A DNA stretch of 64,000 bases from Candidatus Omnitrophota bacterium (GCA_003154195.1 PMCS01000029.1:304960-368959), one strand, 5' to 3'; shown: positions 31,874 to 62,452, numbered from the stretch's first letter. Notes: generated by a model from the sequence alone, not told the origin. Numbers and translations: made by a program.

Positions 31874-32025
31874 AATGAGACTTCGCCGTAATGAAACTTG
31901 CCCGGTACCCAGGGCTTAGTTGAATTAGCAAGCCCGAAGGGCGTAGCGGGAGGCGGTAGTCGAATCAATGAAACTAAGTCCCGCCGTATTCGGCGGGCCA
32001 AGTTTCATTGCCCCGAAGGGGGTTT
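31874..32025. repeat. Nested-palindrome repeat element, AATGAGACTTCGCCGTAATGAAACTTGCCCGG family (full copy)
   Basis: aatgagacttcgccgtaatgaaacttgcccggtacccagggcttagttgaatta...ggcgggccaagtttcattgccccgaaggggg. The arm taatgaaacttgcccgg pairs with ccgggccaagtttcatt. Related copies lie at 32596, 44236 and 62367. Confidence 0.7.
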
Positions 32026-32050
32026 GAGATCGTTGGGAAAATAAAAAAAC

Positions 32051-32078
32051 TTGACAAATCGGCTATTACTGCTATCCT
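32051..32078 (+). promoter_or_regulatory. Promoter-like TTGACA-16-TATCCT upstream of pilin gene B
   Basis: TTGACA at 32051-32056 with a weak -10 element. RBS AGGAGG at 32145-32150. Confidence 0.35.
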
Positions 32079-32158
32079 TAAAATAAGGGTGTGTTCTTAT
32101 TATATATTAACCATATTTCCCTGCAGGGGTAGGGAAATAAAAAAAGGAGGTGGGTCAG

Positions 32159-32539
32159 ATGCTTAAGTTTAGAAAGAGCAAAGGTTTTACTCTCATTGAG
32201 TTGATCATGGTCATCGTTATCATCGGTATTTTAGCGGCAATCGCGGTTCCTCGGTTTGTAAACTTACGTAAGGACGCGAGAAAGGCCCAGTGCGAAGGCA
32301 GCGTAGCGGCAATCAGGGCGGCGCTTTCCAATTATTTTGCTTATTGGTCGGTTAACAGCGCTCATTATAACGGCAATTTTCCTGCCAGCATTGGTGCTCT
32401 TGATAATTATTTTCAAGATAAGGCAGAGCCGTCGTCTCCCGGTTGGCTCAATGCTACTGCTACTTGGAATAGCTATTATACTTCAGGCCAGACCGGCACG
32501 ATGAACCAAAGTGCCGCATGCGACGTAAACAACTTCTAA
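32159..32539 (+). CDS. pilA: Type IV major pilin (PilA-like), prepilin
   Basis: MLKFRKSKGFTLIELIMVIVIIGILAAIAVPRF. AGGAGG lies 8 nt before the ATG at 32159. A GTG at 32150 (the track start) is less likely. Confidence 0.85.
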   Translation: MLKFRKSKGFTLIELIMVIVIIGILAAIAVPRFVNLRKDARKAQCEGSVAAIRAALSNYFAYWSVNSAHYNGNFPASIGALDNYFQDKAEPSSPGWLNATATWNSYYTSGQTGTMNQSAACDVNNF

Positions 32540-32566
32540 CGACATTTAGGGAGTTATTTTTAAAAA

Positions 32567-32595
32567 GCCCCGCATTTTATGCGGGGCTTTTTTTT
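32567..32595 (+). terminator. Canonical rho-independent terminator after pilin gene B
   Basis: GCCCCGCA-tttta-TGCGGGGC followed by TTTTTTTT. Confidence 0.8.
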
Positions 32596-32665
32596 AATGA
32601 GACTTCACCGTAATGAAACTTGCCCAGTACCCCGGCTTAGTTTTATTGCCCAGCGCTAATTCTGC
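32596..32665. repeat. AATGAGACTTC-family repeat, partial copy
   Basis: aatgagacttcaccgtaatgaaacttgcccagtaccccggcttagtttta. Confidence 0.65.
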
Positions 32666-32986
32666 GCAGTAAGATAGAGGGATGCAGCCAATTTTTTCTC
32701 GGACCGAAAAAACGGCAACCTGCTTCGCAATTCTTGAGAAACAGTTTGAACGCAGGTGTTTTTGTGGCCCAAAACAACGCTAAAAAATTTTTATCCATGT
32801 TTTTTTAATCCTGAGCGCCGGATTTTTGGTATATAGTAATTATCTGTCCGGTAAATTTGTCTGGAACGATAAGGTTTTGATAGGGGTAACACCTATTTAA
32901 GAAACTGGTCTAAGTAAGCGGTTAAGCGGGGAGTTAAACTTTACCGCAGGTTTCAGTTGTTCGGCGGTTATCAGGATTTACAATAG

Positions 32987-34645
32987 TTAACGCTGACGAT
33001 ATTTTTTCAGGTCTTCGGAGAATTGGGAGGTTGGTTTTGATCCTAATTCGGCCGCCCTGTCGCAATGCTTTATGGCTAAATTATATTTTTTCTGTTTATA
33101 ATAAAGCGCTGCCAAGTATTGATGCGCGTTGGCGTTGCCGGGTTTTTTCTTCAAGAGTTTTTCAAAAGCGTTTATCGCCTCTTCTATCCTGCCCGTTTGA
33201 AAGTAAACTATACCCATGTTATTAATATTATCCGGATATTCGGGATTTATCGCAAACGCTGTTTCAAAAGAAATAATCGCTTCTTTATATTTCCCTAAAT
33301 TAGAGTAGATGACTCCCAAATTATTGTAGGCGTTTACCAGCTGCGGTTCGATTTCTATTGCTTTTTTGTAAAAAGTCACAGCCTCTTGATATCGGCCAAG
33401 CTGATTATATTCATTGGCAAGGTTAAAATAGGGCCTGGCGCTACGGGGCGAATATTTTATCGTTTGCCGATAAAATCCTATCGGTTCCCGCCAATAGTAA
33501 TTTTGCCGGGCTGTTAAATAACAATAGGCGATTATTAGTAAAATAGCCGCTCCGGCCGTTATTATTTTGTATTGCCGGTTGCTGTAAATTTGGGTAAACC
33601 ATTTTCCCAGAATAAGGAAAAAGCCTACGGAAGGGACATATAAAAAATGTTCTGCCATATAAAAAGTAAGGGGAGGATAAATATTCGCGACCGGGATAAG
33701 CGTTATAAAAAACCATAAAACGGCAAACGATACTAAGGGGTTTGTGTTTTTTCTGCGCCCGGCATAGGCGATAAGGCAAATTGTTGCGCCTACGCCGGCA
33801 ATTGCCTGAGGGTGGCTGAATTTGAATAACTGGTTGCCGTATTCCATGTGCAGGTTCCAGGGAAGAAACAGCAACCGCAAATAGCCGGCTATGGCCACAA
33901 AGAAGCCCGGTGTCCTTTTCCAGGCGCCGGCAAGCAGGGATAAAGGAATGGCCGCCGATTTAGACACCGCAAGCCTTAAAAAAAGATAAACCGACAGTGT
34001 CGTTATTATCAAAAGAAACGCTTTGCCGTTGATTTTTCTTTTAAAAACGACGTGGTAGAGTAATATCAAAGCAGGAAAGACGATGCTGCCTTCTTTTGAT
34101 AACAGCGCCAATCCGTAAGTTAAAAAAGTTAGAAGATAAAGGGACGCGCCGGTAAGCCTGATATAGCAAATAAAACAAAGCAACATAAACAGCAACGCTA
34201 AAGAATCTGCCCGACCGGAGATATAACTTACTGCTTCCGTGTGTATGGGGTGAACAACAAAAAGCAAAGCGGTCAAAAAAGCAAGGAGCCTGTCGCCGAA
34301 GAGGCAGGCAACCAGCCGGAATAAAGCCAAAGCGGTTAAAATGTGCAAAAGAAGATTGGTTATATGGTAGCCGACGGGATTAAAGCCCCATAAGCGGTGA
34401 TCAAAGCTGTAGCTAAGCAGTTGCAGCGGGCGGTAAAAATAAGAAGGCGCATCGGTGTCCCCGATAGTTTTGGTAAAAACGGATTTTATGCCCGGACCGC
34501 CGCGGAGCGCGGGGTTGTTTTTAACTAAAGTTGTGTCATCCCACAAAAATTGGCCTTGAAATGAATTGTAGTAAGCGATAACAGCGGCGGCGATGATAAG
34601 CAAGGAAAAAAAAGTATAAGTTTTGTTTAATCCGAAAACTGCCAT
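32987..34645 (-). CDS. TMTC-like transmembrane glycosyltransferase (PMT_2/DUF1736 N-domain + C-terminal TPR repeats), paralog 1
   Basis: FLWDDTTLVKNNPALRGG (PMT-like loop DD motif), about 10 TM helices including a DUF1736-like region, and C-terminal TPR repeats (AINPEYPDNINNMGIVYFQTGRIEEAINAFEKLL). Confidence 0.7.
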   Translation of the reverse strand: MAVFGLNKTYTFFSLLIIAAAVIAYYNSFQGQFLWDDTTLVKNNPALRGGPGIKSVFTKTIGDTDAPSYFYRPLQLLSYSFDHRLWGFNPVGYHITNLLLHILTALALFRLVACLFGDRLLAFLTALLFVVHPIHTEAVSYISGRADSLALLFMLLCFICYIRLTGASLYLLTFLTYGLALLSKEGSIVFPALILLYHVVFKRKINGKAFLLIITTLSVYLFLRLAVSKSAAIPLSLLAGAWKRTPGFFVAIAGYLRLLFLPWNLHMEYGNQLFKFSHPQAIAGVGATICLIAYAGRRKNTNPLVSFAVLWFFITLIPVANIYPPLTFYMAEHFLYVPSVGFFLILGKWFTQIYSNRQYKIITAGAAILLIIAYCYLTARQNYYWREPIGFYRQTIKYSPRSARPYFNLANEYNQLGRYQEAVTFYKKAIEIEPQLVNAYNNLGVIYSNLGKYKEAIISFETAFAINPEYPDNINNMGIVYFQTGRIEEAINAFEKLLKKKPGNANAHQYLAALYYKQKKYNLAIKHCDRAAELGSKPTSQFSEDLKKYRQR

Positions 34646-34816
34646 CGGGCGTCGTTTTATCCTTAACCCATGGGGTTTTTTAAGTTATAGAGAAACCGGT
34701 TGTATCCCCAAAGTCTAAATGTTTTTCGGTCGATATTGAAAAATCCCTTTAAGTTTTAGATTGATTTGATATACTTATTAATAATAAATCTAAATAATAA
34801 GGGTGTCAAATAAATT

Positions 34817-36673
34817 ATGGAAATAATCACGGCTTTGGGGTCAGTTTTATTTATTATTTTATCGGCTGACGCGCTTGGCCGCCTGCCGCCAAGCGCTATT
34901 TTAAAAGATATATATGAGGCACGAATCGGCCTGGGGCTGGCGGTTATTTCCTATTTTATTTTTTTTCTCGGTATTTTTAAATTACTTAATTCCCCCGTTA
35001 TACTATTCTCGTCATTGCTTATTTTTTTACCGCTATTTTTCGCCAATTTAAAAAATTATAAATCTACCCTGCGGCGAACTGCAAGATATTTTTATCAACA
35101 AATCTGCTCGATGCCGATGTTCGATAAATTTATATTTTCTGTTTTAAGTGTTTACTTTGTTTTACTCTTTTTAAATACGCTGACGCCGCCCACCTGCCGT
35201 GATTCTTTGACTTACCATTTATATTTGCCTAAAATATGGCTGAAAGAACAACGGATATTTTCTTTACCAGAAAATATTTATTCATTTTTTCCGCATTTTT
35301 GGGAAATGCTTTATGCTTACGCTTTGCTTCTCGGCGGCGATATCGGCGCAAAGCTCCTGCATTTGTTTACCATTTTCCTAAGCGCGAGGCTCATCGCGAG
35401 AATCATTAAATTGTTGTACCCGCGGATAGAACGCCGGTATATTCTGCTGAGCATTCTTGTTTTTGTTTCCACTCCTACAATCGGCAAAATCGCCACCTGG
35501 GCATACGTCGATCTCGCCCAGACTTATTATCTTTTACTTTCTTTTTATTTCCTGTTTTTGTTCCTGCGGGGAGAAAGGAAAATAACGTTTTATTTGTCGG
35601 CCATCTTTTTAGGTTGCGCCTTAGCCATAAAATACCTTTCGTTGGTATGGCTTTTGTTTTTGCCGTTTTTGATTCTGGAGAAAAAGATTGAAGAAAAGAA
35701 AGGAAAAGAAGCTTTATTTTTGATCGGCGCTTATGTCACTACGGCTTTATCGTGCGCCTTACCTTATTATCTCAAAAATTATTTTGATACCGGCAACCCT
35801 TTTTATCCTTTTTTTTACGGTATCTTCGGCGGTCGATTCCTTGATGCCGGAAAAAGCGTGCTGCTTGACGGGTATTTTAAAAGTTTCGGCTATGGCAATG
35901 GGCTGGGTGATTTATTGTTTTTACCGATAAGATTGGCGTTTTTTTCACGGTTTGAAAACCATCAAAAGTTTGACGGCGAAATCGGGATAATTTATTTGTT
36001 GCTGGCGGTTATCTTTATATGTAAATATAAAAAAATAGATTTGTGGAAGTCTTTAATCTATCTACCCTTTATCGGCGTTTTATTATGGTTCGCGGCCAGC
36101 CAGCAGGTACGATTTTTAATTCCTTTGCTGGCGGTTTTTATCATAATCGCCATAGGGCCGCTGGGACGGGTAAATAAATTTTATTTAAATCTGGTTTTAG
36201 CGATAATCAGCGCTTTATATTTATATTACCCGACCAGGCAATTCATCGAAGCCAGGCCTTACAATTTTATTTTAAACAGGGAAAGCCGCCCGGCCTATTT
36301 AGTAAGAAGCTATCCGATTGTTTATCCCTTGATTGAGAAGATAAACCGGTATGTTCCCCGCGATTCAAAAATAATGCTTTTAATGACCGGACAGATCGCT
36401 TATTTGTTCCAACGCGATGTTTATCAAGAGGTAATCTTTGAAGATTACTCTTTAAGAAAAGCGCTACGGAAAGGGGTAGGCGAAACCATGGGATTTTTTA
36501 AAAATAACCGAATAACCTTTATACTTATTAACGAATCGGCGGTCGCCGGATATTTCGATGAATATGCCGGGAAACAGGTTATTTTTAATTACCTTGAGCT
36601 GAGAAGGAAATATTTAAAGCCGGTTTACCGGCAAAATGGTTTTGGTGTTTATGAAATTATTTTTCCGCGTTAA
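34817..36673 (+). CDS. Large polytopic membrane protein, putative GT-C fold glycosyltransferase
   Basis: 618 aa with at least 12 TM helices, a periplasmic-loop motif RDSLTYHLYLPKIW, and a C-terminal soluble domain. Confidence 0.4.
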   Translation: MEIITALGSVLFIILSADALGRLPPSAILKDIYEARIGLGLAVISYFIFFLGIFKLLNSPVILFSSLLIFLPLFFANLKNYKSTLRRTARYFYQQICSMPMFDKFIFSVLSVYFVLLFLNTLTPPTCRDSLTYHLYLPKIWLKEQRIFSLPENIYSFFPHFWEMLYAYALLLGGDIGAKLLHLFTIFLSARLIARIIKLLYPRIERRYILLSILVFVSTPTIGKIATWAYVDLAQTYYLLLSFYFLFLFLRGERKITFYLSAIFLGCALAIKYLSLVWLLFLPFLILEKKIEEKKGKEALFLIGAYVTTALSCALPYYLKNYFDTGNPFYPFFYGIFGGRFLDAGKSVLLDGYFKSFGYGNGLGDLLFLPIRLAFFSRFENHQKFDGEIGIIYLLLAVIFICKYKKIDLWKSLIYLPFIGVLLWFAASQQVRFLIPLLAVFIIIAIGPLGRVNKFYLNLVLAIISALYLYYPTRQFIEARPYNFILNRESRPAYLVRSYPIVYPLIEKINRYVPRDSKIMLLMTGQIAYLFQRDVYQEVIFEDYSLRKALRKGVGETMGFFKNNRITFILINESAVAGYFDEYAGKQVIFNYLELRRKYLKPVYRQNGFGVYEIIFPR

Positions 36674-37358
36674 ATTTTCCCATTACCCTTACCGGCTTTT
36701 TTCCGGCCAGGGGATATTAGGGTTATGTTTTTTTTCCTCTTTGCTATGGGAAAATTACCTGGTTAAATCAGGCAAGCCCACGGCAAGAGCCGTGCTGATA
36801 TTTTTATGCGCTTATCTTTTAATTTTTCACAGTACCTTTAGTTTCCGGGGAGGTCGGCCTGGATTAAATATTTTCAACTCCACCTACGCTCATTTTTTTA
36901 AAGCCGATATGGATAAATTGCTGGAGTTTAAGTCTATTTTTTATCCCGCCGATTATTACCCGATTGTCGATGTTATTAAAAAACATACCCGGCCGCAGGA
37001 GATTATTTCTTCCAATATCGATATGATGACCGGAGTTTTTTCCGCGTTATCCGGCCGGCCCGCGGCTAATTCGATGTTTTATGAAATAAAGGCCCGGAGG
37101 GCTATTTTCGAAGAGTATGTTTTTGCCCGGTTGATTGTCTGGATCAAACCGCCGGACAAAACTCTTTATTTTTTAAAAAACCGTTTGAAATGGCAAAAGA
37201 TTTATGAAAATAAAATCGCGATTGTTTTTGAGAATCCCAATGCTTCCCGCCGTATCTATCCCGCAAAAGCAGTAATCCCGTTTAAATATATCGGCGTAAT
37301 CTTAGCGATTATTTTTATGTTTTTGGCTTTTGATTTATTTTTGCGGAATAAAAAATAA
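36636..37358 (+). CDS. Hypothetical membrane-associated protein
   Basis: 240-aa ORF overlapping the previous gene by 38 nt in a different frame. Hydrophobic N- and C-termini. The start is uncertain; an internal ATG lies at 36912. Confidence 0.3.
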   Translation: MVLVFMKLFFRVKFSHYPYRLFSGQGILGLCFFSSLLWENYLVKSGKPTARAVLIFLCAYLLIFHSTFSFRGGRPGLNIFNSTYAHFFKADMDKLLEFKSIFYPADYYPIVDVIKKHTRPQEIISSNIDMMTGVFSALSGRPAANSMFYEIKARRAIFEEYVFARLIVWIKPPDKTLYFLKNRLKWQKIYENKIAIVFENPNASRRIYPAKAVIPFKYIGVILAIIFMFLAFDLFLRNKK

Positions 37359-37359
37359 A

Positions 37360-38967
37360 ATGAAATTATTGCATATTATTATAATAATAGTTCTCGGTTT
37401 AGTAATTTACTCTAATTCGCTGGCCGGTCGGTTTGTCTGGGATGATTATACCTTAGTGGAGGCAAACACTTACCTGAGGAGCTGGTCCCATGTGCCCGAT
37501 ATTTTTACCAGAGATATGGGTTCTGGCGCCGACGTAAAATATTATTTTTACCGCCCTTTGCAGATATTTATTTACCGCCTAATCTATTCCTTGGCGAAAT
37601 TAGATGTAAGATTTTACCATTTCGCCAATATTTTTTTTCATATCGGCGCTGCTTTATGCGTTTATGGATTAGCGGTTATGATTTTTAGCGATAGCTTGCC
37701 GGCTTTTTTTACGGGGATTCTCTTTTTGGTTCATCCGATACAAACCGATGCTGTTTGCTATATTTCCGGAATAGCTGACCCTCTCTGCGCGGTATTTTTG
37801 CTCTTGTCTTCTATATTTTATATAAAATTTATCCATTGCGATAATAATTTTCAATCCGGTGCCGGCCGCAAACGGATAATCTTTTATGTTTTAGCGCTAA
37901 TAAGCTGTAATCTAGCTCTTTTGTCCAAAGAAATTGGTTTGGTTTTTCCGCTTATACTTTTATTGTGCCATTATACGTTTAAGAAAAAACTAGAAGGTAA
38001 ATATTTTTTGCCATTTTTGATTATCGTTTTTAGTTACCTATTATTTCGCAATTCAATCGTCGGCAACAATGCCCCGTTTAGTTTTACCGCCGCAGTATTG
38101 AGAATTCCCGGATTTTTTGCCGCGCTCGCCGATTACGCCCGGCTTTTGCTGCTCCCTTTCGGTTTGCATGCGGATTACGGGAACAAGCTATTCAGTTTTT
38201 TTCAGCCCGTGACGATACTGGGATTGAGTATTGTACTTTTTTTGCTGGTTCTGGCGTTCAAGAAAAAAAATAAAAACAATATTCTATTCTTTTCCGTAAT
38301 GTGGTTTTTTATCACGCTTTTACCGGTTTCCGGGATATACCCTATTTTACGTTTTTATATGGCCGAACATTATTTATACCTGCCGTCGCTGGGATTCTTT
38401 TTAATTTTTGCCGACATCCTAAATCGTGCCTGCCGAGTTGACAAATTTAAAATTGCCGGCCGTATTTTAATAATATTTTTAGTCGGTTTTTATTCTTATT
38501 TGACCGTTAAACAGAATAATTACTGGCGGGAACCGGTAACATTTTATAAAAGGACGGTTAAATATAATCCTCTAAGCGTCAGGATGTGGATGATGCTTGG
38601 CGAGATCTATTTTGCCGGGGCCAGGTATGATGAGGCGGAGGCGGTATTCAAAAAGGTCGTAGAGATTAATCCCAACCATTCAGCCGGTTACTTTACCTTA
38701 GGCAATATCTATGCAAGGAGGGGGCAGTTTAAGGATGCCGCTTTTTATTTTGAAAAAGCCATCGAAGTTAACCCTGAGCACGCCGCGGCTTATAATAATC
38801 TGGCTAACCTTTTCAGGCAAATCGGCAGAAAAAATATCGCGGTATCTTTGTACAAAAAAGCTATCGAAGTTGATGCTCATCTTGAATCGGCTCGCGCCAA
38901 TCTTGCCGATATTTCTCATAATCTGGACGAGCCGGAACCAAAAAAGAAAAAAAATCGTCCAGATTAG
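37360..38967 (+). CDS. TMTC-like transmembrane glycosyltransferase with TPR repeats, paralog 2
   Basis: FVWDDYTLVEANTYLRSW, DUF1736-like TM core, and C-terminal TPRs (INPNHSAGYFTLGNIYARRGQFKDAAFYFEKAIEVNP). The ORF is open from 37330. Confidence 0.7.
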   Translation: MKLLHIIIIIVLGLVIYSNSLAGRFVWDDYTLVEANTYLRSWSHVPDIFTRDMGSGADVKYYFYRPLQIFIYRLIYSLAKLDVRFYHFANIFFHIGAALCVYGLAVMIFSDSLPAFFTGILFLVHPIQTDAVCYISGIADPLCAVFLLLSSIFYIKFIHCDNNFQSGAGRKRIIFYVLALISCNLALLSKEIGLVFPLILLLCHYTFKKKLEGKYFLPFLIIVFSYLLFRNSIVGNNAPFSFTAAVLRIPGFFAALADYARLLLLPFGLHADYGNKLFSFFQPVTILGLSIVLFLLVLAFKKKNKNNILFFSVMWFFITLLPVSGIYPILRFYMAEHYLYLPSLGFFLIFADILNRACRVDKFKIAGRILIIFLVGFYSYLTVKQNNYWREPVTFYKRTVKYNPLSVRMWMMLGEIYFAGARYDEAEAVFKKVVEINPNHSAGYFTLGNIYARRGQFKDAAFYFEKAIEVNPEHAAAYNNLANLFRQIGRKNIAVSLYKKAIEVDAHLESARANLADISHNLDEPEPKKKKNRPD

Positions 38968-38974
38968 TCATTTG

Positions 38975-42407: not shown

Positions 42408-42490
42408 ATCCGTCTTCTTCTTCTTCTTCTTCGGGTATTTTCTACATAATAAACTTTCAGGCTATTTATATTTATGCATTTCCTGAAAGT

Positions 42491-44191: not shown

Positions 44192-44235
44192 GCCATAATT
44201 TTCTATTAGTAAATTTTTGGTGTGATAAAATAATT

Positions 44236-44335
44236 AATGAGACTTAGCCGAAATCAAGCCCGAAGGGCGCAGATTGAGGCGGTAGCCGAATTACCCAGCA
44301 CTAATTTTGCCGTAGCAAAATTAGTGCTGGGTAAC
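44236..44335. repeat. AATGAGACTT-family repeat variant with a 17-bp perfect hairpin
   Basis: aatgagacttagccgaaatcaagcccgaagggcg...gaggcggtagccgaatta, followed by CCCAGCACTAATTTTGC-cgta-GCAAAATTAGTGCTGGG. Confidence 0.6.
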
Positions 44336-44368
44336 GTAAATCGCCGGCTTCGTCGGTGGTAATTAACT

Positions 44369-46063
44369 ATGCGTAATAGTATTATCTATTTATTAATCTT
44401 TCTTGCTGTTTTAGGAGTGCTTAGCCCTATTGTATTTCTACGTACCTGGCCCCTGACCCATGATACTTCCCGGTATATTGTCCTTTTGGACCATTTTCGC
44501 GCGGCATTTCTCCAGGGGATAATCTATCCTCGTTGGCTTCCCAATCTATACGGCGGTTATGGGTACCCTACTTTTTTATTTTACCAGCCGGGATTTTTCT
44601 ATTTTGCTCTCCCTTTTACTTTTCTTCCCGGGTATCCGGAAAATGCCATACCCCTGGCGGTAATTTTCTTATTCTTTCTCGGCACCGCCGGCGCTTACCG
44701 CCTTTGTAAGGAAATATCTTCCGATAACATGACCGCGCTGTTTTGTTCGCTTTTATTTTTGTTAACGCCCTATCTCTACGTAAATTTTTATGTCCGCGGC
44801 GATTTAAGCGAATTAATGGCGATGTTGCTGTGCCCCTGGCCTTTATATTTTTTGATCAAGCTGAAGAAAAATATTTTTTCGCTTAAATACACAATCAGTT
44901 TGCTTGCTGCTTTAAGCATGGTTTTTATTTCTCACCCGGCAACCGCTTTATTTTTTATCTTGGTTTTTTGCGTTTTTGTCATAGCGCTTTTTTTTGATCT
45001 GCCTTTGGCTTCGCGTAAAAGTTTTCTCATCAACGCGGCGTTTGTGGCTATTGCCGCCGGGATTTTAACTTCGCCGTACTGGTTCACCATATTTAAAATG
45101 AAACCCTATGCTAATATTGAGGTAGTAACCGAAAATTATTTTTTGTGGGAACGCCATTTTGTCTCTGTCCCCCAATTATTTTTGCGCTACCGGGAATTTA
45201 GCGCTTCAGTCCCGGGCCGGGCTGACGTGTCTTTTCAACTGGGAGCATTCCATTTTCTTTTTGCCTTATGCGGTTTTGTAGCCATGCGGCGTAAAAAGGT
45301 TATTGCAGTATCTTTTTTTCTGTATCTATTTTTAATTTTTCTGATGACGCCTTACAGCGCGCCATTATGGCGATGTATTCCTTTTATGAAGTTTGTACAG
45401 TTCCCCTGGAGGATTTTATCGGTTACCGCCACCTTACAGGTTATTTGTGCTTGCGGTATCGCCGCGCTTTTCTCCACGAGTTTTTCCTCCGGGCGTAAAG
45501 TAAGCCTGATGGTGATGTTGCTGGCGCTGATGTTGTTATGGTATTCCCCGCAGTTTAAAATATCCGGCACGCTGGATATCGACGCTTCTCTACGCGAGGC
45601 AAAGATCCCGGAAATTACGCGGTTTGATACCTATACGGCATATAATGAATTTTTACCTAAAGCGGCGCTGGGGAAAACTTTTTTATCCAGCCGTTTCAAT
45701 ACGGGGATGCTTTCGCTAAGCGGATCAGCAAACTGTATTCCTTTTAAAGATAATAGCGAATACCGGCTTCATTATCAAGTCAAGGCTGCCTCGAGGGTAG
45801 TGGCGCGGATTAACCAGCTTTATTTTCCGGGTTGGAAGGTTATGGTTAATGGTAAAACTATTTCGTCTCTATTTCTGGAGAAGAATATTTCAGAAGACCC
45901 GCGGATATTCTTCGTTTTACCCGGGGCCGGAGATTATGAGATTGAAGCATTTTACGACGGCCCGCCGGGTCATTTTAAACATAATATTATAAACGCTTTT
46001 TTAATGACGGTACTAGGCGTTGTTTTAGTTTATTACCGACGGGAGTTGTCAGCTAAGGCCTAA
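44369..46063 (+). CDS. Large polytopic membrane protein, putative GT-C-like glycosyltransferase
   Basis: 564 aa, at least 12 TM helices, conserved-looking loop RWLPNLYGGYGYPTFLFYQPGFFY, and a C-terminal beta-rich domain. Confidence 0.4.
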   Translation: MRNSIIYLLIFLAVLGVLSPIVFLRTWPLTHDTSRYIVLLDHFRAAFLQGIIYPRWLPNLYGGYGYPTFLFYQPGFFYFALPFTFLPGYPENAIPLAVIFLFFLGTAGAYRLCKEISSDNMTALFCSLLFLLTPYLYVNFYVRGDLSELMAMLLCPWPLYFLIKLKKNIFSLKYTISLLAALSMVFISHPATALFFILVFCVFVIALFFDLPLASRKSFLINAAFVAIAAGILTSPYWFTIFKMKPYANIEVVTENYFLWERHFVSVPQLFLRYREFSASVPGRADVSFQLGAFHFLFALCGFVAMRRKKVIAVSFFLYLFLIFLMTPYSAPLWRCIPFMKFVQFPWRILSVTATLQVICACGIAALFSTSFSSGRKVSLMVMLLALMLLWYSPQFKISGTLDIDASLREAKIPEITRFDTYTAYNEFLPKAALGKTFLSSRFNTGMLSLSGSANCIPFKDNSEYRLHYQVKAASRVVARINQLYFPGWKVMVNGKTISSLFLEKNISEDPRIFFVLPGAGDYEIEAFYDGPPGHFKHNIINAFLMTVLGVVLVYYRRELSAKA

Positions 46064-46105
46064 TTATCTGATAATTACTTGCGCAGATTACCGTAGCGCA
46101 GTAAA

Positions 46106-48230: not shown

Positions 48231-48274
48231 CGTCAGGCAAGCGCGGCACATTTTCCCGGTTGAGGAATAGAAAA

Positions 48275-52204: not shown

Positions 52205-52385
52205 TTAAAATTATTTATCGAAACGGGCGCAGTTTTTTGATTTTGTCAAAGGCGGGGAATGGAGTATAATATACTGGAAGAGGCTAAAGGCGCTTCGCTT
52301 AATTCTCATGGGACATTAAGCGTGGTGGGTTTAGCTGAAAGAAATAATTGTGGCGGGCGACCGGGTTTCATTGAGGAGGCGAATA

Positions 52386-52973
52386 ATGAAAGGAAGAATT
52401 TTAAGAAGGAAATACCTGATTCATCCCTCGAGCCAGCTTAAATATATTGCCATGAGCATCTTGCCTACTTTATTGGTAAGCATTTTTGGGATATACTTTT
52501 TAGTCAGAAGCGGGGAGTTTATTTTTTTGATTGAGAAGGAGCAATTTTCTGCCGGAACGTCTTCTATCGATTTGACTATTCAGCAGCTGGAACGTGAAGC
52601 TTATCCTCGCGAAGCGGTGACCAAAATCAAAGTGTTAAAGAGTGACTTGCTTTCTTTGCGCAGCCTCTTAGATACTTCTTATTATGACGCCGTAAAAAAA
52701 TGGAACGATACAAAATCGGCGATGATACTTATTTTAGCCGCAGTTATCGTTTTTTCCGCGGTATTATCCCTTCTGTATTCCCATAGAATTGCCGGGCCGA
52801 TTTTCCGGTTGCGCCGGTCGATTGACATGCTCAGCCAGGGCCAGGATATACCGCCGGTTCACGTTCGCCGCTACGATGAATTTAAAGAATTGGCCGAATC
52901 GGTAGAACAATTGCGGGAAACCCTTAAAAAAAAGGGTATCCTGGGCTGGAGGGAAGATTCCAGCCATCGCTGA
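52386..52973 (+). CDS. Membrane protein with a HAMP linker domain and no obvious output domain
   Basis: Two TM helices flanking a periplasmic segment, then HAMP-like RIAGPIFRLRRSIDMLSQGQD. RBS GAGGAGG before the ATG at 52386. Confidence 0.5.
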   Translation: MKGRILRRKYLIHPSSQLKYIAMSILPTLLVSIFGIYFLVRSGEFIFLIEKEQFSAGTSSIDLTIQQLEREAYPREAVTKIKVLKSDLLSLRSLLDTSYYDAVKKWNDTKSAMILILAAVIVFSAVLSLLYSHRIAGPIFRLRRSIDMLSQGQDIPPVHVRRYDEFKELAESVEQLRETLKKKGILGWREDSSHR

Positions 52974-53011
52974 TAGTTTTATTTAAAATAATTTCTTTAA
53001 AAATATGAAGG

Positions 53012-54517: not shown

Positions 54518-54625
54518 AGGAAAAAAATAGTTTATCATAAAAAATATGAACCCCGTTAGACCTTTGCGCAAAAAAATATGCGCAATTTCCTTGATTTTTC
54601 AAAGTCTAACGGGGGGTAATCTTGC

Positions 54626-55510
54626 ATGGCAAGAAGGAGGCCTAACGGGGTGAAGATAAGCGTTGTTTTACCGGCTTATAACGAGGCGGAAAATTTAAAG
54701 AATATATTGCCCGGAATTCGTAAGACCATGGGCGATGCGGCAGAAATCATCGTAGTGGACGATGCGTCGAGCGACCAAACGGCGCTCGTTGCCAGGGACT
54801 TTGGCGCGACGGTGATAAAAAATCCCTATAATATGGGTAACGGCGCCGCGGTCAAGCGCGGTATCCGCAGGGCCGGCGGCGACATTATCGTGTTGATGGA
54901 TTCTGACGGCCAGCACCGGCCGCAAGATATACCCCTGCTTTTAAAAGAATTGGACGATTTCGATATGGTTATCGGCGCGAGAACCAATTCCCAACAGGTT
55001 TGGTGGCGTAAATCTGCCAACGCGCTTTATAACTGTTTAGCTTCCTATGTTACGGATGTCAAGATCGACGATTTAACTTCGGGATTCCGGGTATTTAAAA
55101 AAGCGCAGGCGCTGAAATTTCTTTATTTGCTGCCTAATACTTTTTCTTACCCCTCAACGTTAACGCTGGCATTTATTAAGGCTTCTTATCCGGTTAAATT
55201 TGTTCCCGTGAATGTTCTTGCTCGGAGCAGGGGGGAAAGCAAGATAAATCTGATTAAAGACGGTTCGCGTTTCCTTTCGATTATTATGAAAATCAGCGTT
55301 TTTTTCGCGCCGCTGAAAGTATTTTTACCGGTTTCTCTGCTTTTCTTTTTTACCGGCCTCGGCTATTATAGTTATACTTTTTTTCTTTTCCACCGTTTTA
55401 CCAACATGAGCGCTCTGCTTTTTACCGCTTCCATTATCATCTTTATGCTTGGGCTTATTTCCGAACAAGTCGCTTCCTTAAAGATGGAAAAGATAGACGA
55501 AGAATCTTAA
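54626..55510 (+). CDS. GT2 polyprenol-phosphate sugar synthase (ArnC/GtrB/DPM1-like) with C-terminal TM anchor
   Basis: ISVVLPAYNEAENL...VVDDASSD...DSDGQH (DxD) with C-terminal TM helices. AAGGAGG lies 11 nt before the GTG at 54650, which may be the true start. Confidence 0.8.
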   Translation: MARRRPNGVKISVVLPAYNEAENLKNILPGIRKTMGDAAEIIVVDDASSDQTALVARDFGATVIKNPYNMGNGAAVKRGIRRAGGDIIVLMDSDGQHRPQDIPLLLKELDDFDMVIGARTNSQQVWWRKSANALYNCLASYVTDVKIDDLTSGFRVFKKAQALKFLYLLPNTFSYPSTLTLAFIKASYPVKFVPVNVLARSRGESKINLIKDGSRFLSIIMKISVFFAPLKVFLPVSLLFFFTGLGYYSYTFFLFHRFTNMSALLFTASIIIFMLGLISEQVASLKMEKIDEES

Positions 55511-55530
55511 CCGGAAAAATACCCCTGCTC

Positions 55531-55556
55531 GCCTCGCTTCGCGAGTCGAAGCGGGC
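55531..55556 (+). promoter_or_regulatory. Conserved hairpin motif GCCTCGCTTCGCGAGTCGAAGCGGGC (copy 2 of 2)
   Basis: CGCTTCG-cgagt-CGAAGCG perfect stem, near-identical to 48206-48230. Confidence 0.5.
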
Positions 55557-55573
55557 TCGCCCGGTTCGACTCA

Positions 55574-55672
55574 TCTCGCTCGCCTCTCGGCGTCCGCCTC
55601 GGCGAGCTTTCGGCCCTCGGCTTTGTCCACCTCGGCAAGTCTTTGGCGAGACGGGCCGAGAGGCGAGCGAGA
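55574..55672. repeat. GC-rich long palindrome with 18-bp terminal stem and internal CTCGGCNAG triplicate
   Basis: TCTCGCTCGCCTCTCGGC at 55574-55591 pairs perfectly with GCCGAGAGGCGAGCGAGA at 55655-55672. The interior holds ctcggcgagcttt / ctcggctttgtcc / ctcggcaagtcttt. Confidence 0.6.
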
Positions 55673-55711
55673 CGGGAAGCTGATGTCGATTCACTTAAAG
55701 AGGATATGGAG

Positions 55712-57205
55712 CAAAAAAAATATAAATTGCCCCTGGTGTTTTTATCGTTGATCTTCTGGGTTTTTATTTTTATCAATATCTCCGGGGATTTTGTTAACTT
55801 CGGCGGCGACAGCAGCCAATACATAATCCTGGCGGAAAGCCTTGCGAGAGGTACGGGGTATCACGCGATCAATCAGCCCGGTTCGCCGTCATTTTTCTAT
55901 TATCCGCCTGTTTTTCCTTTGATTATTTCCCCGATTATTTATTTTTTTGGAAGAAACTTCTATTTAATGTATTTATTGATTGCTGTTTTCGGTTATTTAA
56001 GCTTGATTTTTCTTTACTATTTTTTTAAAACGCAGGCAGGAAGGGATATCGCATTTTTTTCCACGGCCTATTTAGCGTTGAACAACATCTTTATTTTTTA
56101 TTCTTCCGGGGTGATTTTATCGGAAATACCGTATTTATTTTTTTCGTCTTTTGCCCTTTACGCCGCTCATAAATATTTTTACGCGCCGGTATGCTTCGGC
56201 AAAGAAGCGATTTTACTTATCCTGGGTTTAATTGCCGCCTATCTCACGCGTTATATCGGGATAGTTTTATTTCCGGCCACGGTTATTTTTTTGTTCTTCT
56301 CCTGGGATAAGCGAAAGGCAGTTTTTGTCGCTTCTTCTTTTATCGCTTTTTTTATTCTTTGGCAAACTGTTATTAAAGCCGGAGGCGCATCTTCGAGCCT
56401 CCACTATCAACAATTGCTTTTAATCGATCCCTACCGGCCGTTTTTGGGAAATATCTTAACCAACCCGGGTTTTCTTCTTCTCCGTTTTATTGAAGGGATT
56501 AACTATTACGCCTATCTCACCGGAAGCATTTTCCTGCCGGTTTTTTTAAAAGGTTTTTGGGCGCGCAGTTTCTATCCGCCGGCGGTGTTTATTGTGATTA
56601 TTTATGGTGTATGCTGCGATTTTTTCGGGAACCGCAGCCGCTTGCTTCCTTCCTATTTTATTTTTTATTTTCTCCTTACCGTTTTATGGCCGTTTAAGGA
56701 AGGCGTAAGATTTTTAGTGCCTATTTTACCGTTTTTTGTTTACTATATTTTTATTGCGCTTAAATCTTTGACGTCATTTTTAAAAAGCCAGATGATCGCC
56801 CGGTATATTTTTTACGTGCCGGCAATTTTTATTATTTTTTTTTCCAATACCCCGGCTTTCCCCATTAAGCAATACGCTTACCAGGATTTATCTAAGGAGC
56901 TTAAGAATTTTATCGCGCTGCACCTATGGATCAAAAACAATATTCCCGCAAACAGTATTATTGCCGGCCGCAAGCCTACCCTTACTTATTTTTATACCGG
57001 ACGGCAGGCTTTGGACTATCCTTTTACTCTCAACGATGAAGAAATGAAGCAATTCTTCGTCGACAACCATGTTGATTATGTGATCATCGACGAATTTTCT
57101 CAGGAAACCCGCAGCTATCTTCTGCCGTTTTTAAAAAAGTATAACCGTAGTTTCAAGCTAACGTATCGTGTAGGAAATACATTGTTGTTGGAAAAGATAA
57201 AATGA
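55712..57205 (+). CDS. GT39/ArnT-PMT-like polytopic glycosyltransferase
   Basis: GGDSSQYIILAESLARGTGYH first-loop motif and at least 11 TM helices. RBS AAGAGGA before the ATG at 55712. The track ORF starts at 55643, inside the palindrome. Confidence 0.55.
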   Translation, partial: QKKYKLPLVFLSLIFWVFIFINISGDFVNFGGDSSQYIILAESLARGTGYHAINQPGSPSFFYYPPVFPLIISPIIYFFGRNFYLMYLLIAVFGYLSLIFLYYFFKTQAGRDIAFFSTAYLALNNIFIFYSSGVILSEIPYLFFSSFALYAAHKYFYAPVCFGKEAILLILGLIAAYLTRYIGIVLFPATVIFLFFSWDKRKAVFVASSFIAFFILWQTVIKAGGASSSLHYQQLLLIDPYRPFLGNILTNPGFLLLRFIEGINYYAYLTGSIFLPVFLKGFWARSFYPPAVFIVIIYGVCCDFFGNRSRLLPSYFIFYFLLTVLWPFKEGVRFLVPILPFFVYYIFIALKSLTSFLKSQMIARYIFYVPAIFIIFFSNTPAFPIKQYAYQDLSKELKNFIALHLWIKNNIPANSIIAGRKPTLTYFYTGRQALDYPFTLNDEEMKQFFVDNHVDYVIIDEFSQETRSYLLPFLKKYNRSFKLTYRVGNTLLLEKIK

Positions 57206-57220
57206 TGTTATGGTGAATTT

Positions 57221-59374: not shown

Positions 59375-59491
59375 TTACTTTTTATTTGAACCGCGGAAAT
59401 CCGCCGAATTTATCCGGTGCGCCTGCCCGCGGCAGGTAGGCAGCTGGAATTTTTAAAAAAATTAAAGAAATAGCGGCATTTTTTGGGTTAA

Positions 59492-61096
59492 TTGATTGTT
59501 ATGGCTATATTAGAAAATTTAACTAAACCGGTTTCCCGCAAAACGCAAGGGGCGATCATACTTGGCCTGATCCTTATGCTGTCGTTTCTCGCCAGGCTTC
59601 CTTTTTTAAATGTCCCCTTAGACGGCGACAGCGGAGTTTTTACGGCAATCGGCCGGCTGATTGCCCGGCATGGCCTTCTGCTTTACCGCGATCTTTTCGA
59701 AATTAAACCTCCGGGAATATATTTTTTGTTTGCCGCCTTATTCAAGGTCATTGATTTAGACCTGTTTGGTGTTAACGTGTTCACCGCTTGCTGGAACACG
59801 GCGAATGTATTTTTGGTCTACCTTCTGGCGAAGCGCTTATTTAATAAAAAAACTGCTTTAATCGCGGCATTTTTTTACGGTTTGTTTTCCTCGAGCCCTG
59901 TAATCTCTGGCACTTTTCCTCTCACCGAAAATTTTATGATAACCTTTACAGTGATGGGAGCTTTTTTTGTAATTAAATCAATACAAGAAAACCGCAATTT
60001 TTATTTTCTCGCCGGATTATTTTACGGTGTTGGTTTTCTTTTTAAGCAGATTGCCGCCATGGAGATGTTTGCCGCCGTCATTTTGCTATTTCTGGCATCA
60101 TTCAGGCCGGGGGGGAAAGTAGAAATAAAATATTTTTTACGCGGTTTATTATTTTACTCTGGCGGTCTTATCCTCATCTTCGGCATAAGCGCTTTATATT
60201 TTTTTATAAAAGGCGCCTACAATGATTTTATCTTCTGCGCGCTTATTTATAATTTTAAGTATATAAGCGTAGGCTATCGCAGCCTTAGCAGCTATTGGCT
60301 TCATTTCTTTAATGCTAATTTTGCTATTTTTCGCGCTACGGCGCTATTATGGATAACAAGCGCGATATTTATGGCAGAGACATTTAAGGATATTTTTACG
60401 AAACGCCCGGCCGCCGGAGAAAAACAGGCGGTTCTAAACCGTATTTTTTTGTTAGTTTGGATTATTTTTGCGTTTATAGGCGTTTGTTTAAGCGGCCAAT
60501 TTATCGTCCACTACTATATTGTTTTAATGCCCCCTTTTAGCATAGCTTGCGCCGCGGCTTTAACCCGGCCGTGGGCCGCGCGGCGTAATAGTTTTTATAA
60601 TGCCGTGATGTATATTTTAACGGCCGTATGCGTTATCTACGCGATAGCCGTCCATTATCGGTATTATTTTACCTATAAACCTGAGGAGATTGCGATTAAT
60701 GTTTTTGGGGATTCGCCTTTTAATGAGGCGCGTCAGGTGGGATTATATTTACGCCGGCACACTACCCCCGGCGATTATATTTATAATTGGTCGAAAGAGC
60801 CGGAGATATTCTTTTATACCCGGGCTAAGCCGACAAGCCGTTATCTTTGGTTGTCCCACTACACTGTTTATTATCGCCCCGGCGCGGTAGACGAAGTGGC
60901 TCATGCCTTGGCCGAGCACCCGCCAAAATATATCGTCATCGATACGCATATTGGCCACTGGATACATGAGCCGATATTTAAACCGATCAAAGATTTTTTT
61001 GACCGGAATAAATATATTCCGGAAAAGGATTTTTCCGTAGTGCGAAACGGCAAATTCCAATATAATTTTTTAGTTTCCCGGCGTATAGAAAGGTAA
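59492..61096 (+). CDS. GT39/ArnT-PMT-like polytopic glycosyltransferase
   Basis: LDGDSGVFTAIGRLIARHGLLLYRDLFEIKPPGIYFL matches the D-x-G-x-Y-A-x-I-G-R-x-M-x...-KPPL-x-YWL first-loop pattern of ArnT/PMT_2-like enzymes; about 12 TM helices. Confidence 0.55.
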   Translation: MIVMAILENLTKPVSRKTQGAIILGLILMLSFLARLPFLNVPLDGDSGVFTAIGRLIARHGLLLYRDLFEIKPPGIYFLFAALFKVIDLDLFGVNVFTACWNTANVFLVYLLAKRLFNKKTALIAAFFYGLFSSSPVISGTFPLTENFMITFTVMGAFFVIKSIQENRNFYFLAGLFYGVGFLFKQIAAMEMFAAVILLFLASFRPGGKVEIKYFLRGLLFYSGGLILIFGISALYFFIKGAYNDFIFCALIYNFKYISVGYRSLSSYWLHFFNANFAIFRATALLWITSAIFMAETFKDIFTKRPAAGEKQAVLNRIFLLVWIIFAFIGVCLSGQFIVHYYIVLMPPFSIACAAALTRPWAARRNSFYNAVMYILTAVCVIYAIAVHYRYYFTYKPEEIAINVFGDSPFNEARQVGLYLRRHTTPGDYIYNWSKEPEIFFYTRAKPTSRYLWLSHYTVYYRPGAVDEVAHALAEHPPKYIVIDTHIGHWIHEPIFKPIKDFFDRNKYIPEKDFSVVRNGKFQYNFLVSRRIER

Positions 61097-61261
61097 ATAA
61101 CCTGGATAACTGCCTATACGCCGGGGAAGTCTAAGGTAGAGCCGGGATGGCCGCTTTCAGCGGCTGACTTGCCCGTTTATAAGGAACTTAGCTTTGGCAT
61201 CCATGGTTTTACCGTAAGGAGGGTTTAATCTTTGTCAATTTGCCGCAGGCAAATTAGCGGA

Positions 61262-61298
61262 TAAATTCACCTCGCGGTAAACTGCGAGGTGAATTTAT
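61262..61298 (+). promoter_or_regulatory. 13-bp perfect hairpin enclosing the Shine-Dalgarno of the GT4 gene
   Basis: AAATTCACCTCGC-ggtaaact-GCGAGGTGAATTT. GAGGTG lies in the 3' arm, 8 nt before the ATG at 61299. Confidence 0.5.
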
Positions 61299-62417
61299 AT
61301 GAAAGTGCTTTTTATCAGCCGCAGTTTTCCTCCCTTAAGGGGGGGGATGGAAAAAGTAGCCCATAATCTTTATACCGATTTTTCGGCTAAGGCAAGCGTT
61401 ACGCTTATAAAATGGAGTGGTTCAAAGAAATGGCTTGTGTTCGTTTTGCCGGTTTTTTTTATGAAAAGCGCATGGTATCTTTTGTGTAAAAAAATCGACG
61501 TAATCTATTTATGCGACGGTTTTCTTTCTCTCTTGATACCGTTTTTAAGAATTTTTAAAAAACCGATTATAGTTACCGTTCACGGTTTGGATATAACCTA
61601 CAAAAATAAATCTTATCAGGCGATTATCCCCAAAAAAATAGCCTTAGCGGACAGGGTAGTTTGCGTAAGCCGCGCGACTGCCGGCGAGTGTTTAAAAAGG
61701 AATATCCCGGAGGAAAAGATTTGTATCGTGCCTAACGGTATAAAAGATGAGTTTTATCTGGCCGGGGGTAGGGGAAATTTAAAAGCCGCGCTTGAACGCA
61801 AATTAAAAATAAATATCGGTAACAAAAAAGTGCTGCTCTCCGTGGGGAGGCTTATCGAGCGTAAAGGGATCCATTGGTTTATTAAAGAAATCGTGCCTAA
61901 GATTAAAGCGGATTGCGCCGATTTCGTTTATTTGGTCGCCGGATGCGGCAAAATGGCCGAAGATATCCGGGCGATTATTAAAAATAATGCTTTAGAGAAT
62001 TGGGTGGTTATGGTTGGAGAAGTAAGCGACGAGGAGCTGAAAATTTTATACAACGCGGCTGATATCTTTGTGATGCCTAATATTCCCGTCGCGGGCGATT
62101 TTGAAGGGTTTGGCATTGTGATTCTGGAAGCAGCGAGCTGTGGCCTGGCGGTGGTAGCTTCTGACATGGAAGGCATCAGGGACGCGCTTGGGGATGGAGA
62201 CTGGGGGGTTTTAATTGAGCCGCTTAACGCCGCTAAATTTAGCGGGGAGATTTTGAATTTAATGAGAGATGATGATAGAAGAGCCAACTTGGCTACGCGC
62301 GCCCGGGCCGGCGTAATTGATGTTTTTAATTGGCCGGGCGTCGCGCAAAAATATTTGGATATTTTTAATGAGACTTCGTCGATAATGAAACTTGCCCGGT
62401 ACTCCGGGCCTAGTTGA
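61299..62417 (+). CDS. GT4-family glycosyltransferase (GT-B fold)
   Basis: EX7E-type motif FVMPNIPVAGDFEGFGIVILEAASCGLAVVAS. The last ~17 codons (SSIMKLARYSGPS) are translated from the AATGAGACTT repeat, so the annotated C-terminus is repeat-derived. Confidence 0.75.
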   Translation: MKVLFISRSFPPLRGGMEKVAHNLYTDFSAKASVTLIKWSGSKKWLVFVLPVFFMKSAWYLLCKKIDVIYLCDGFLSLLIPFLRIFKKPIIVTVHGLDITYKNKSYQAIIPKKIALADRVVCVSRATAGECLKRNIPEEKICIVPNGIKDEFYLAGGRGNLKAALERKLKINIGNKKVLLSVGRLIERKGIHWFIKEIVPKIKADCADFVYLVAGCGKMAEDIRAIIKNNALENWVVMVGEVSDEELKILYNAADIFVMPNIPVAGDFEGFGIVILEAASCGLAVVASDMEGIRDALGDGDWGVLIEPLNAAKFSGEILNLMRDDDRRANLATRARAGVIDVFNWPGVAQKYLDIFNETSSIMKLARYSGPS

Positions 62418-62440
62418 ATTATCCCGGAGGGGATAGCCGG
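62367..62440. repeat. AATGAGACTTC-family repeat copy overlapping the GT4 3' end
   Basis: aatgagacttcgtcgataatgaaacttgcccggtactccgggcctagttgaatta, then a cccggagggg hairpin. Confidence 0.65.
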
Positions 62441-62452
62441 ATTAATAAACCG

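Follow-up and report, generated by a model that had tools for sequence, protein, structure and literature searches.

A stretch of 64,000 nucleotides (nt) from Candidatus Omnitrophota bacterium (GCA_003154195.1, PMCS01000029.1:304960-368959; called the window below, always at its whole length) carries four copies of a structured repeat that belongs to a larger family. The repeats are probably dispersed non-autonomous mosaic hairpin elements, similar to repetitive extragenic palindromes (REP) and bacterial interspersed mosaic elements (BIME), that would be moved as folded single-stranded DNA (ssDNA) by a resident Y1 transposase having a helix-turn-helix (HTH) domain. It is a much safer conclusion that the family is neither an RNA gene nor native coding sequence but a hairpin repeat that is dispersed and non-coding and lives as a selfish or commensal element. 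A first-pass annotation of the window had suggested elements of REP/BIME type or miniature inverted-repeat transposable elements (MITEs), and the suggestion holds in that the family is dispersed, structured, non-coding and multi-copy; since a candidate Y1+HTH enzyme is found near the window, a REP-like element is favoured over a classical MITE with terminal inverted repeats (TIRs).

Copies of the repeat inside and outside the window

All four copies lie on the + strand of the window and have a common invariant head, TTAATGAGACTT. When the 17-mer TTAATGAGACTTCGCCG was searched in the window with at most 3 mismatches, the sites 31872, 32594, 44234 and 62365 were returned and no others (4 observed against 0.30 expected; 0 of 100 shuffles reach 4). 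An independent repeat-finding run on the window gave the identical four copies, grouped as family D1, and a covariance model (CM) scanned over the entire window with the filters off found no further copy of the core. The 17-mer search and family D1 thus confirm the four places named in the first-pass annotation, with boundaries that had to be revised (copy 3, for example, reaches 44368 and is longer than claimed); the hairpins GCCCGAAGGGC and CCCCGAAGGGGG that it had pointed out are also both present.

Copy 1 (31872 to ~32031) is the fullest array in the window and starts immediately 3′ of the T-run behind a cyclic di-GMP (c-di-GMP) riboswitch. The head TTAATGAGACTTCGCCG (31872-31888) is followed by a nested mini-hairpin module UAAU-GA-AACU…AGUU-GA-AUUA (31889-31927), after which come the apex of the core, GCCCGAAGGGC, and the 3′ arm GGCGGTAGTCGAAT (31928-31965), then a hairpin CAATGAAAC…GTTTCATTG (31966-32010) and finally CCCCGAAGGGGG (32011-32022). 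Copy 1 folds with an energy of -70.9 kcal/mol (z -4.6), its CM score is 34 bits, and stretches of 62-68 nt in it are 93-97% identical to copies at unrelated loci. Copy 2 (32594 to ~32661), which starts immediately 3′ of a pilin gene's terminator hairpin and T8 run, is truncated and decayed: it retains the head, a nested module in degenerate form and, of the long-hairpin module, the 5′ half, but lacks the 3′ arm of the core, the CM score is only 14.5 bits and the fold is no better than that of shuffles (z -1.0). Copy 3 (44234-44368) is situated in a divergent intergenic region; its core, a rod hairpin of 60 nt, is uninterrupted (44234-44293) and is joined by a perfect hairpin (44291-44334) and, next to an ATG at 44369, by a terminal hairpin module CGTAAATCGCCGGCTTCGTCGGTGGTAATTAACT (44335-44368), and the copy has the z value -7.5 and a CM score of 85.3 bits (E about 1e-18). 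The perfect hairpin had been described earlier as 17 bp long, and we find it to be of 20 bp. Copy 4 (62365-62446) has the head, the nested mini-hairpin module, a small hairpin TCCC-GGA-GGGA and TAGCCGGATTAAT, scores 30 bits with the CM and occupies the entire spacer between a glycosyltransferase gene and the next gene; 59 nt of it are about 90% identical to copies at the metagenome loci L029, L031 and L035. The folds are far better than those of shuffles, copy 2 being the exception.

A census of copies, which the earlier proposal had thought of as genome-wide, was run on metagenome contigs, and there the family is far larger than the four copies of the window. Scanning JGI metagenome contigs with the pattern TTAATGAGACTTNNNCGN{1,2}AATNAA gave 23 loci, of which ~17 are true copies; these are spread over at least 10 contigs, and sample Ga0182021 supplies most of them. 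Beyond the window there are at least 25 arrays on at least 10 metagenome contigs, or at least 20 on at least 10 contigs if one sample is counted. A covariance model, R1, built from eight simple cores, gave 37 matches in 199 kb, and two more arrays lie within the 10 kb just past the window end. The same pattern scanned over 185,579 species genomes gave 14 matches, all of them chance or an unrelated Moorena transposon end, and therefore the family is not in the species-genome collection in recognisable form. Loci whose flanking genes are unrelated have stretches of 60-70 nt in common at 93-97% identity (68 nt at 95.6% in one case). We infer that the contigs with most copies are of the same genome as the window, because they come from common samples (Ga0182017 holds both), have similar GC (0.41-0.49 as against 0.43) and carry near-identical modules.

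A common core, of which TTAATGAGACTTCGCCGAAATCAAGCCCGAAGGGCGCAGATTGAGGCGGTAGTCGAATTA is an example, is combined in these arrays with optional parts, namely a nested mini-version of itself (TAATGAAACTT-GC hairpin-AGTTGAATTA), an apical insertion of two further hairpins, and 3′ hairpins of several kinds. At L027, L019 and L023 the arrays run head-to-tail on one strand with linkers such as GGGTAATGAGCTTGAGACTT. The apical insert of the arrays at L019 is also present in the window as an isolated 30-nt sub-module without core, CTCGCCTCGCTTCGCGAGTCGAAGCGGGC, at 55527-55556 on the + strand. The spacer that holds it (55520-55680, between the open reading frames (ORFs) 54626-55510 and 55643-57205) is GC-rich and strongly self-complementary.

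Fold, strand and insertion context

The core is an imperfect palindrome of ~60 nt that forms a rod hairpin with UAAU-GA-RACU…AGUY-GA-AUUA at its foot, the entire fold being UAAU / GA / GACU-U-NNCC / GA / AAUC / AA / GCCC-GAA-GGGC / GYA / GAUU / GA / GGNN-G-U / AGUC / GA / AUUA. In the R1 alignment of the 37 matches, 90.4% of the cells are paired and both-sided changes are seen in 16 of the 21 pairs; compensatory examples include CGCC/GGCG, GGCC/GGCC, AGCC/GGCU and CACC/GGUG, and a whole stem is swapped in GGGCUUUU/AAAAGCCC. The covariation score is 0.288 as against 0.103 for shuffles (0 of 500 reach 0.288) and at most 0.082 for slid partners, where the alignment, being fitted to the model, somewhat favours structure, though compensatory changes are still visible in the raw sequences. 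The foot-adjacent loop has tandem G·A in nearly all copies, retained even where the neighbouring pairs covary (e.g. UAGU-GA-AACU / AGUU-GA-ACUA), and the second GA/GA loop is replaceable by Watson-Crick pairs. Both G·A loops stand in Py-GA-Pu context, many of the loops are GNA triloops closed by C-G (GAA, GUA, GGA), and a U·G pair is conserved in 20 rows. GNA triloops and Py-GA-Pu tandem mismatches are very stable in ssDNA as in RNA. The opposite strand would show TC/TC and A·C instead of GA/GA and U·G, so that these features are strand-specific. Two further measures of the strand are uninformative: apart from the one conserved U·G there are as many G·U as A·C (22 each), and the energies of the two strands from DNA-parameter folding are nearly equal, because the nearest-neighbour model gives no credit to tandem G·A.

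Strong folding with covariation, and tandem G·A and U·G pairs conserved in a strand-specific manner, would also suit a structured RNA motif in transcripts, be it a 3′-end stabiliser, terminator, processing site or small RNA with a regulatory role in the flanking operons. Copies 1, 2 and 4 of the window have the same orientation as the gene upstream of them, copies 1 and 2 come after terminator-like hairpins, and copy 1 is in the read-through path of the c-di-GMP riboswitch, all of which fits such a motif. Yet between co-directional genes about 11 elements are in sense and 11 in antisense orientation (the ORF calls behind these counts are crude), and in at least 8 loci an antisense element abuts a start codon, the antisense cases adjoining convincing N-termini such as MKTKIGIVGCGS and MNIAVFASGNGT. 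The location at gene 3′ ends given in the first-pass annotation is accordingly true of some copies; elsewhere about half are antisense and lie immediately before start codons. Copies run over the ends of coding sequences, copy 2 has decayed to a fragment, the wobble counts just given show no excess of G·U over A·C, and the triloops and mismatches are equally good motifs of ssDNA, none of which is in favour of an RNA. In Rfam 15 the repeats have no match at the gathering score and nothing meaningful overlaps them at E up to 10; the matches near 32560 all align to the pilin terminator. We regard an RNA motif as improbable on this evidence. Conserved strand-specific mismatches that come without a bias of transcriptional orientation indicate instead that one strand of DNA folds. 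Such folding of one DNA strand is the situation of Y1 (HUH) transposases, that is, of the IS200/IS605 and REP-associated tyrosine transposase (RAYT) families.

The sequence in front of the elements has a composition of its own. In the 12-nt 5′ flanks of 28 array heads we see an A/T-rich tract with T at position -1 in 23 of the 28, G+C at positions -5 to -1 in only 1-5 of 28 per position (background 44%) and no fixed tetranucleotide. Such T-ending tracts have two sources, namely terminator T-runs in the sense strand (copies 1 and 2 of the window follow a hairpin and T-run) and the A-rich spacer before start codons when read antisense. For the latter, there are 8 loci where a housekeeping-type gene on the opposite strand has its ATG 2-15 nt (most often 6-7) from the head (L019 7523; L028 11714; L029 3855 and 11156; L030 7370; L033 8619; L034 1696; L035 4613). 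The genes behind these antisense heads have no space for a Shine-Dalgarno sequence, and no consistent -35/-10 pair was found in the antisense element across the 8 loci when promoter donation or leaderless mRNA was considered.

An A/T-rich flank, an element that starts with TTAA and a multi-copy, non-coding, intergenic family are also features of a classical MITE, which would be a deletion derivative of an insertion sequence (IS) with a DDE transposase and would move as double-stranded DNA by its TIRs, leaving a duplication of, for example, TA or TTAA. The element ends TAATGAGACT and AGTCGAATTA can indeed be taken as an 8/10 inverted repeat, with GA/GA mismatches that are invariant. However, these mismatches stay constant in nearly all copies while the surrounding stems covary, which no DDE transposase needs, and pairing is imposed on the whole of the interior, as is uncommon in MITEs with TIRs. 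The first-pass annotation had proposed a look for target-site duplications, and in the 28 5′ flanks and the nested-module junctions none is apparent, the 3′ boundaries of the arrays being fuzzy; at the junction, the nested module predicts CGCCG-TA-TCAAG where the uninterrupted cores have CGCCG-AAA-TCAAG. Also, none of the loci showed a DDE transposase whose ends match, and the arrays are head-to-tail with common linkers. A classical MITE is thus an unlikely identity for the family, and we return to the REP-like element and its enzyme.

The candidate Y1 transposase and related systems

A gene for a Y1 (HUH) transposase with HTH, of 313 amino acids (aa), lies 5.9 kb downstream of copy 4 and outside the window (L053 15728-16669). 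The protein scores 36.7 bits with Pfam Y1_Tnp (cut-off 23) and has an HTH_23-like C-terminus, and among 10 aligned orthologs neither the HUH motif (NHLHILL) nor the tyrosine motif YIHLNP varies. Its gene neighbours are unchanged in every contig retrieved, and no second Y1 gene was found in the window or in the 23 metagenome loci (about 260 kb). Orthologs are widespread in Omnitrophota at 45-64% identity.

The gene is itself bracketed by inverted copies, of ~20 nt, of TAAGA(GA)CAAAACAAGTCAGAC (L053 15657-15680 and 16620-16655, ~6.9 kb beyond copy 4). The upstream flank carries AATAAGACAAAACAAGTCAGAC, and TAATGAAACAAAACAAGTCTGAC-TTGTTTTGTCTCTTA spans the 3′ end of the gene as a hairpin and an inverted copy of the upstream repeat, and the downstream copy forms a hairpin within the last codons of the gene, an arrangement like that of the 'TIRYT' group. 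The flanking repeats are of the kinds AATAAGAC… and TAATGAAAC…GTCTCTTA, where TAATGAAAC is also the head of the nested module. The stronger evidence for a link of enzyme and repeat is the arrangement in Ca. Velamenicoccus archaeovorus (CP019384). Its Y1 ortholog (52% identity) has five palindromes of the form TAATGAGAC-N7-YCWGR-N7-GTCTCATTA within 1.6 kb and none elsewhere in the 20-kb locus, and one of them overlaps the stop codon of the ortholog. Several of these palindromes start with TAATGAGACTT, the invariant head of our family, and the foot TAATGAGAC(TT) is identical. Other Y1 orthologs also have flanking palindromes, with differing outer stems and a similar loop, AAGTCWGAC.

A number of observations weigh against this enzyme as the partner of the repeats. 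The class of the enzyme is uncertain, as it scores 59.8 bits with the NCBIfam model REP_Tyr_transpos ('REP-associated tyrosine transposase'), below the cut-off of 80; no solved structure gave a significant match, the single-sequence search returning nothing and the profile search a weak match (E = 0.22) to the HUH region of ISDra2 TnpA. The repeats immediately flanking the gene, ACAAAACAAGTCWGAC, are found nowhere else in the ~270 kb examined and have only an 8-9-nt foot, AATGAAAC/AATAAGAC, in common with the family, and arrays of the family come no closer to the gene than ~0.9-1.1 kb on its upstream and 3.3 kb on its downstream side, with other genes between. Classically a RAYT is directly flanked by an abundant repeat, and its flanking 16-mers are frequent genome-wide (PMC5581495); here the flank 16-mers occur only at the gene, which therefore lacks the classical RAYT flank. 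Moreover, Y1 proteins with a C-terminal HTH (subclass 2.1) are described as having no REP-like sequences near their genes (Quentin et al. 2018, PMC6006769), and this subclass probably corresponds to the 'TIRYT' group as far as that paper, with Di Nocera et al. 2013 cited there, presents it. We found no empty site and no presence/absence polymorphism, the spacing at copies 1-4 being identical in every contig of the species from several metagenomes, and so no direct evidence of mobility; the orientation of the elements is uncorrelated with local GC skew (14 concordant, 10 discordant), which is uninformative; and it is presumed that the outside copies belong to the genome of the window.

On comparison with known systems, the family is most like the REP/BIME elements with their RAYT (TnpA_REP) of E. 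coli, Pseudomonas and Stenotrophomonas: in both, short imperfect palindromes are scattered between genes, many of them beside gene ends and facing either way, and are put together as mosaic arrays, and it is the hairpin and not the sequence alone that is conserved. The likeness would extend to a high copy number within one genome and to a Y1 HUH transposase that is probably present once. The Omnitrophota core differs in being longer (~60 nt), with a foot TAATGARAC and tandem G·A in place of GTAG and a stem, in arrays that are head-to-tail or nested and not alternating, in a Y1 gene without the abundant repeat at its flanks, in an enzyme with a C-terminal HTH and in the host phylum. With REPIN-RAYT systems (Bertels & Rainey 2011; Bertels et al. 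2017, PMC5581495) it has in common a non-autonomous hairpin population beside one vertically inherited Y1 transposase, and near-identical copies at unlinked loci. A REPIN, however, is a doublet of inverted palindromic REPs and its abundant 16-mers flank the RAYT, whereas here we have one long hairpin; on both the flank and the doublet organisation the family departs from REPIN/RAYT. Subclass 2.1/TIRYT (PMC6006769) agrees in having Y1_Tnp with an HTH_23-like C-terminus and a gene bracketed by inverted ~20-nt copies, but no REP family is reported for it and its TIR consensus is GGGG[AT][CG]A[CG], while our gene has other flanks and a hairpin family with the same foot.

The IS200/IS605 elements and their miniatures (PATEs, cyanobacterial Nezha) also have strand-specific subterminal hairpins with functional mismatches, transposition of ssDNA by a Y1 HUH enzyme and insertion beside a short target without duplication (the last two of which we presume for the present family), and the Omnitrophota enzyme resembles them in its weak match to ISDra2 TnpA. 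In contrast to them we saw no tnpB and no full-length multi-copy IS, the 5′ flank is A/T-rich and T-ending and not a fixed tetra- or pentanucleotide, and one whole-length hairpin replaces the separate left-end and right-end hairpins. ERIC/IRU, the pneumococcal BOX, the Neisseria Correia elements and mycobacterial MIRUs are likewise modular or imperfect palindromes between operon genes in either orientation and can extend or overlap ORFs, and the TAATGA that overlaps stop and start signals resembles MIRUs; there is, however, no sequence similarity with any of them. Correia elements further have 26-bp TIRs, a TA duplication and promoters, whereas no consistent promoter is present here, and BOX and ERIC are without a linked Y1 enzyme.

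Repeat-altered gene ends, neighbouring features and implications

The ORF at 61299-62417 encodes a GT4 glycosyltransferase of the GT-B fold (Pfam Glycos_transf_1 117.6 bits, Glyco_transf_4 50.5 bits), and its frame runs into copy 4. The translation ends as ...NWPGVAQKYLDIF|NETSSIMKLARYSGPS*, with KYLDIF before the junction. Codon 357 begins at 62367, where the invariant head has its third base, and the tail NETSSIMKLARYSGPS (62367-62414, + strand) is made of the 16 codons after F356, followed by a TGA stop (62415-62417, + strand) that is supplied by the element's AGTTGAATTA. The first-pass annotation had correctly read the frame through the repeat, giving ~17 repeat-encoded residues where there are 16, and it saw in copy 4 a recent insertion that replaced the native stop codon. 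On comparing the C-terminus with that of the homologs (120 matches listed, 46-56% identity, mostly from Omnitrophota and the candidate phyla radiation, CPR), we found the tail in none of them; they end with 1-15 unrelated residues after a conserved W..I..YL..F motif. Copy 4 has thus taken over the native end of the gene, and a tail common to the orthologs, which would have spoken for coding sequence, is not what we see. As to the age of the insertion, the exact 372-aa protein including the tail is on 18 contigs from several metagenomes and in one NCBI metagenome-assembled genome (MAG), so the insertion is fixed in this population; since it is fixed on all 18 contigs, and copy 4 is only ~90% identical to others, 'recent' is not demonstrated. 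Proteins of the window are also found in NCBI MAG GCA_003154645.1 (contig PMEA01000153.1), and the gene downstream of GT4 has an exact protein match with a start at 62570 and not with the ATG at 62453.

Were the tail native coding sequence, with its likeness to the repeat coincidental or the repeat derived from it, a length of 16 residues would be hardly remarkable, as it barely exceeds the 1-15 residues of the homologs. But more than 25 loci have the same sequence in non-coding surroundings and in other frames, the homologs listed are without it, and the element goes on for 29 nt past the stop codon. A native tail is effectively refuted.

The glycosyltransferase is not the only gene altered in this way. 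A gene for a 549-aa protein outside the window (L053 13023-14672) reads into an element copy in another frame than GT4 and gains 28 codons (...LMRLRRVQARSAPGEAVVKLIPPQRGGM*). Because the head TAATGA has stops in only one of the three frames (TAA TGA), clipped ORFs often run on into the element. Copies of the element also yield spurious small ORFs in gene calls, e.g. one of 41 aa in the interval between the genes on either side of copy 3 (L015 284-409).

Some other features of the window may be recorded here. The riboswitch before copy 1 is a c-di-GMP-I aptamer (31618-31800, + strand; 56.4 bits for a gathering score of 35), the only Rfam match in the window, and its second stem is enlarged by an unusual insert, an AT-rich hairpin of ~109 nt. 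Within the region 31531-31872 a promoter-like TTGACT-17-TACATT precedes the aptamer and a hairpin with a T-run (~31836-31872) follows it. Type IV pilin-like genes lie on both sides of the riboswitch (31076-31447 and 32150-32539), the downstream one being separated from it by copy 1 and another promoter-like site (32051); read-through from the upstream pilin gene into the downstream one may be gated by the riboswitch. A separate family of AT-rich palindromes, TTTATTTTTTGCGnnGCAAAAAATAAA, presumably the 'first family' of the earlier annotation, is found at gene ends (24481-24509, 25729-25799, 26579-26649, 30842-30870 and 37332-37360), often ahead of a GC hairpin that has a CTTCG loop, and adjoins arrays of the present family at L029, L030 and L033. 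Direct repeats of 61-115 nt with 73-77% identity (33602-33666/41370-41434, 38352-38412/49267-49327 and 58032-58146/62529-62643) lie within the many genes for PMT_2/TPR membrane glycosyltransferase-like proteins of 500-700 aa and look like paralogous gene segments rather than mobile repeats. Other identities tried for the present family were rejected. On reading the sequence, the core of a hammerhead ribozyme is unsatisfied with G5 replaced, and the GGA loop of a CsrA sponge is found in copy 4 only. An integron attC would have R″/R′ boxes (RYYYAAC…GTTRRRY), which are missing; the flanking genes code for housekeeping or glycosylation proteins of 370-720 aa and are not cassette-sized, and no integrase (intI) is in the gene tables examined.

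Putting the REP-like reading in terms of a mechanism, we propose that the top strand of the element, and only this strand, would fold when exposed as ssDNA into the rod UAAU-GA-RACU-stem-(GA)-stem-AA/GYA-GCCC GAA GGGC, with optional hairpin modules nested in it or appended. The conserved foot TTAATGARAC with its tandem G·A would be recognised by the genome's apparently single Y1 HUH transposase (RAYT/TIRYT-like, with a C-terminal HTH), which would cut the element and paste it beside A/T-rich, T-ending tracts, these being terminator T-runs for sense copies and A-rich pre-start spacers for antisense copies. An insertion that clips the 3′ end of a gene would leave its ORF reading into the element, as in GT4 (+16 residues) and the 549-aa gene (+28).

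A bolder reading, which we put forward as speculative and rather doubtful, is that this would be the first REP-like population tied to an HTH-bearing Y1 enzyme (subclass 2.1/TIRYT-like), with the TAATGARAC foot and its tandem sheared G·A as the code, and that the elements may also be co-opted by the host in translation initiation or operon punctuation. The co-option is suggested by the stereotyped placing of the 5′ end 6-7 nt from the start codons of several housekeeping genes and by the copy in the riboswitch read-through path between the two pilin genes. To our knowledge REP and REPIN-RAYT systems have been characterised almost wholly in Proteobacteria, and we know of no dispersed partner repeat reported for HTH-bearing Y1 transposases. 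The uncultivated Omnitrophota lineage of the window offers a concrete candidate pair of substrate and enzyme in this respect, with a covarying hairpin family, a candidate enzyme nearby and, at the orthologous gene of a complete genome, a gene-plus-palindrome arrangement. For annotation, it matters that such elements put repeat-encoded C-terminal tails on real genes, as in GT4 and the 549-aa protein, and for genome evolution they are an example of insertions remodelling gene ends and intergenic spacers in compact genomes.

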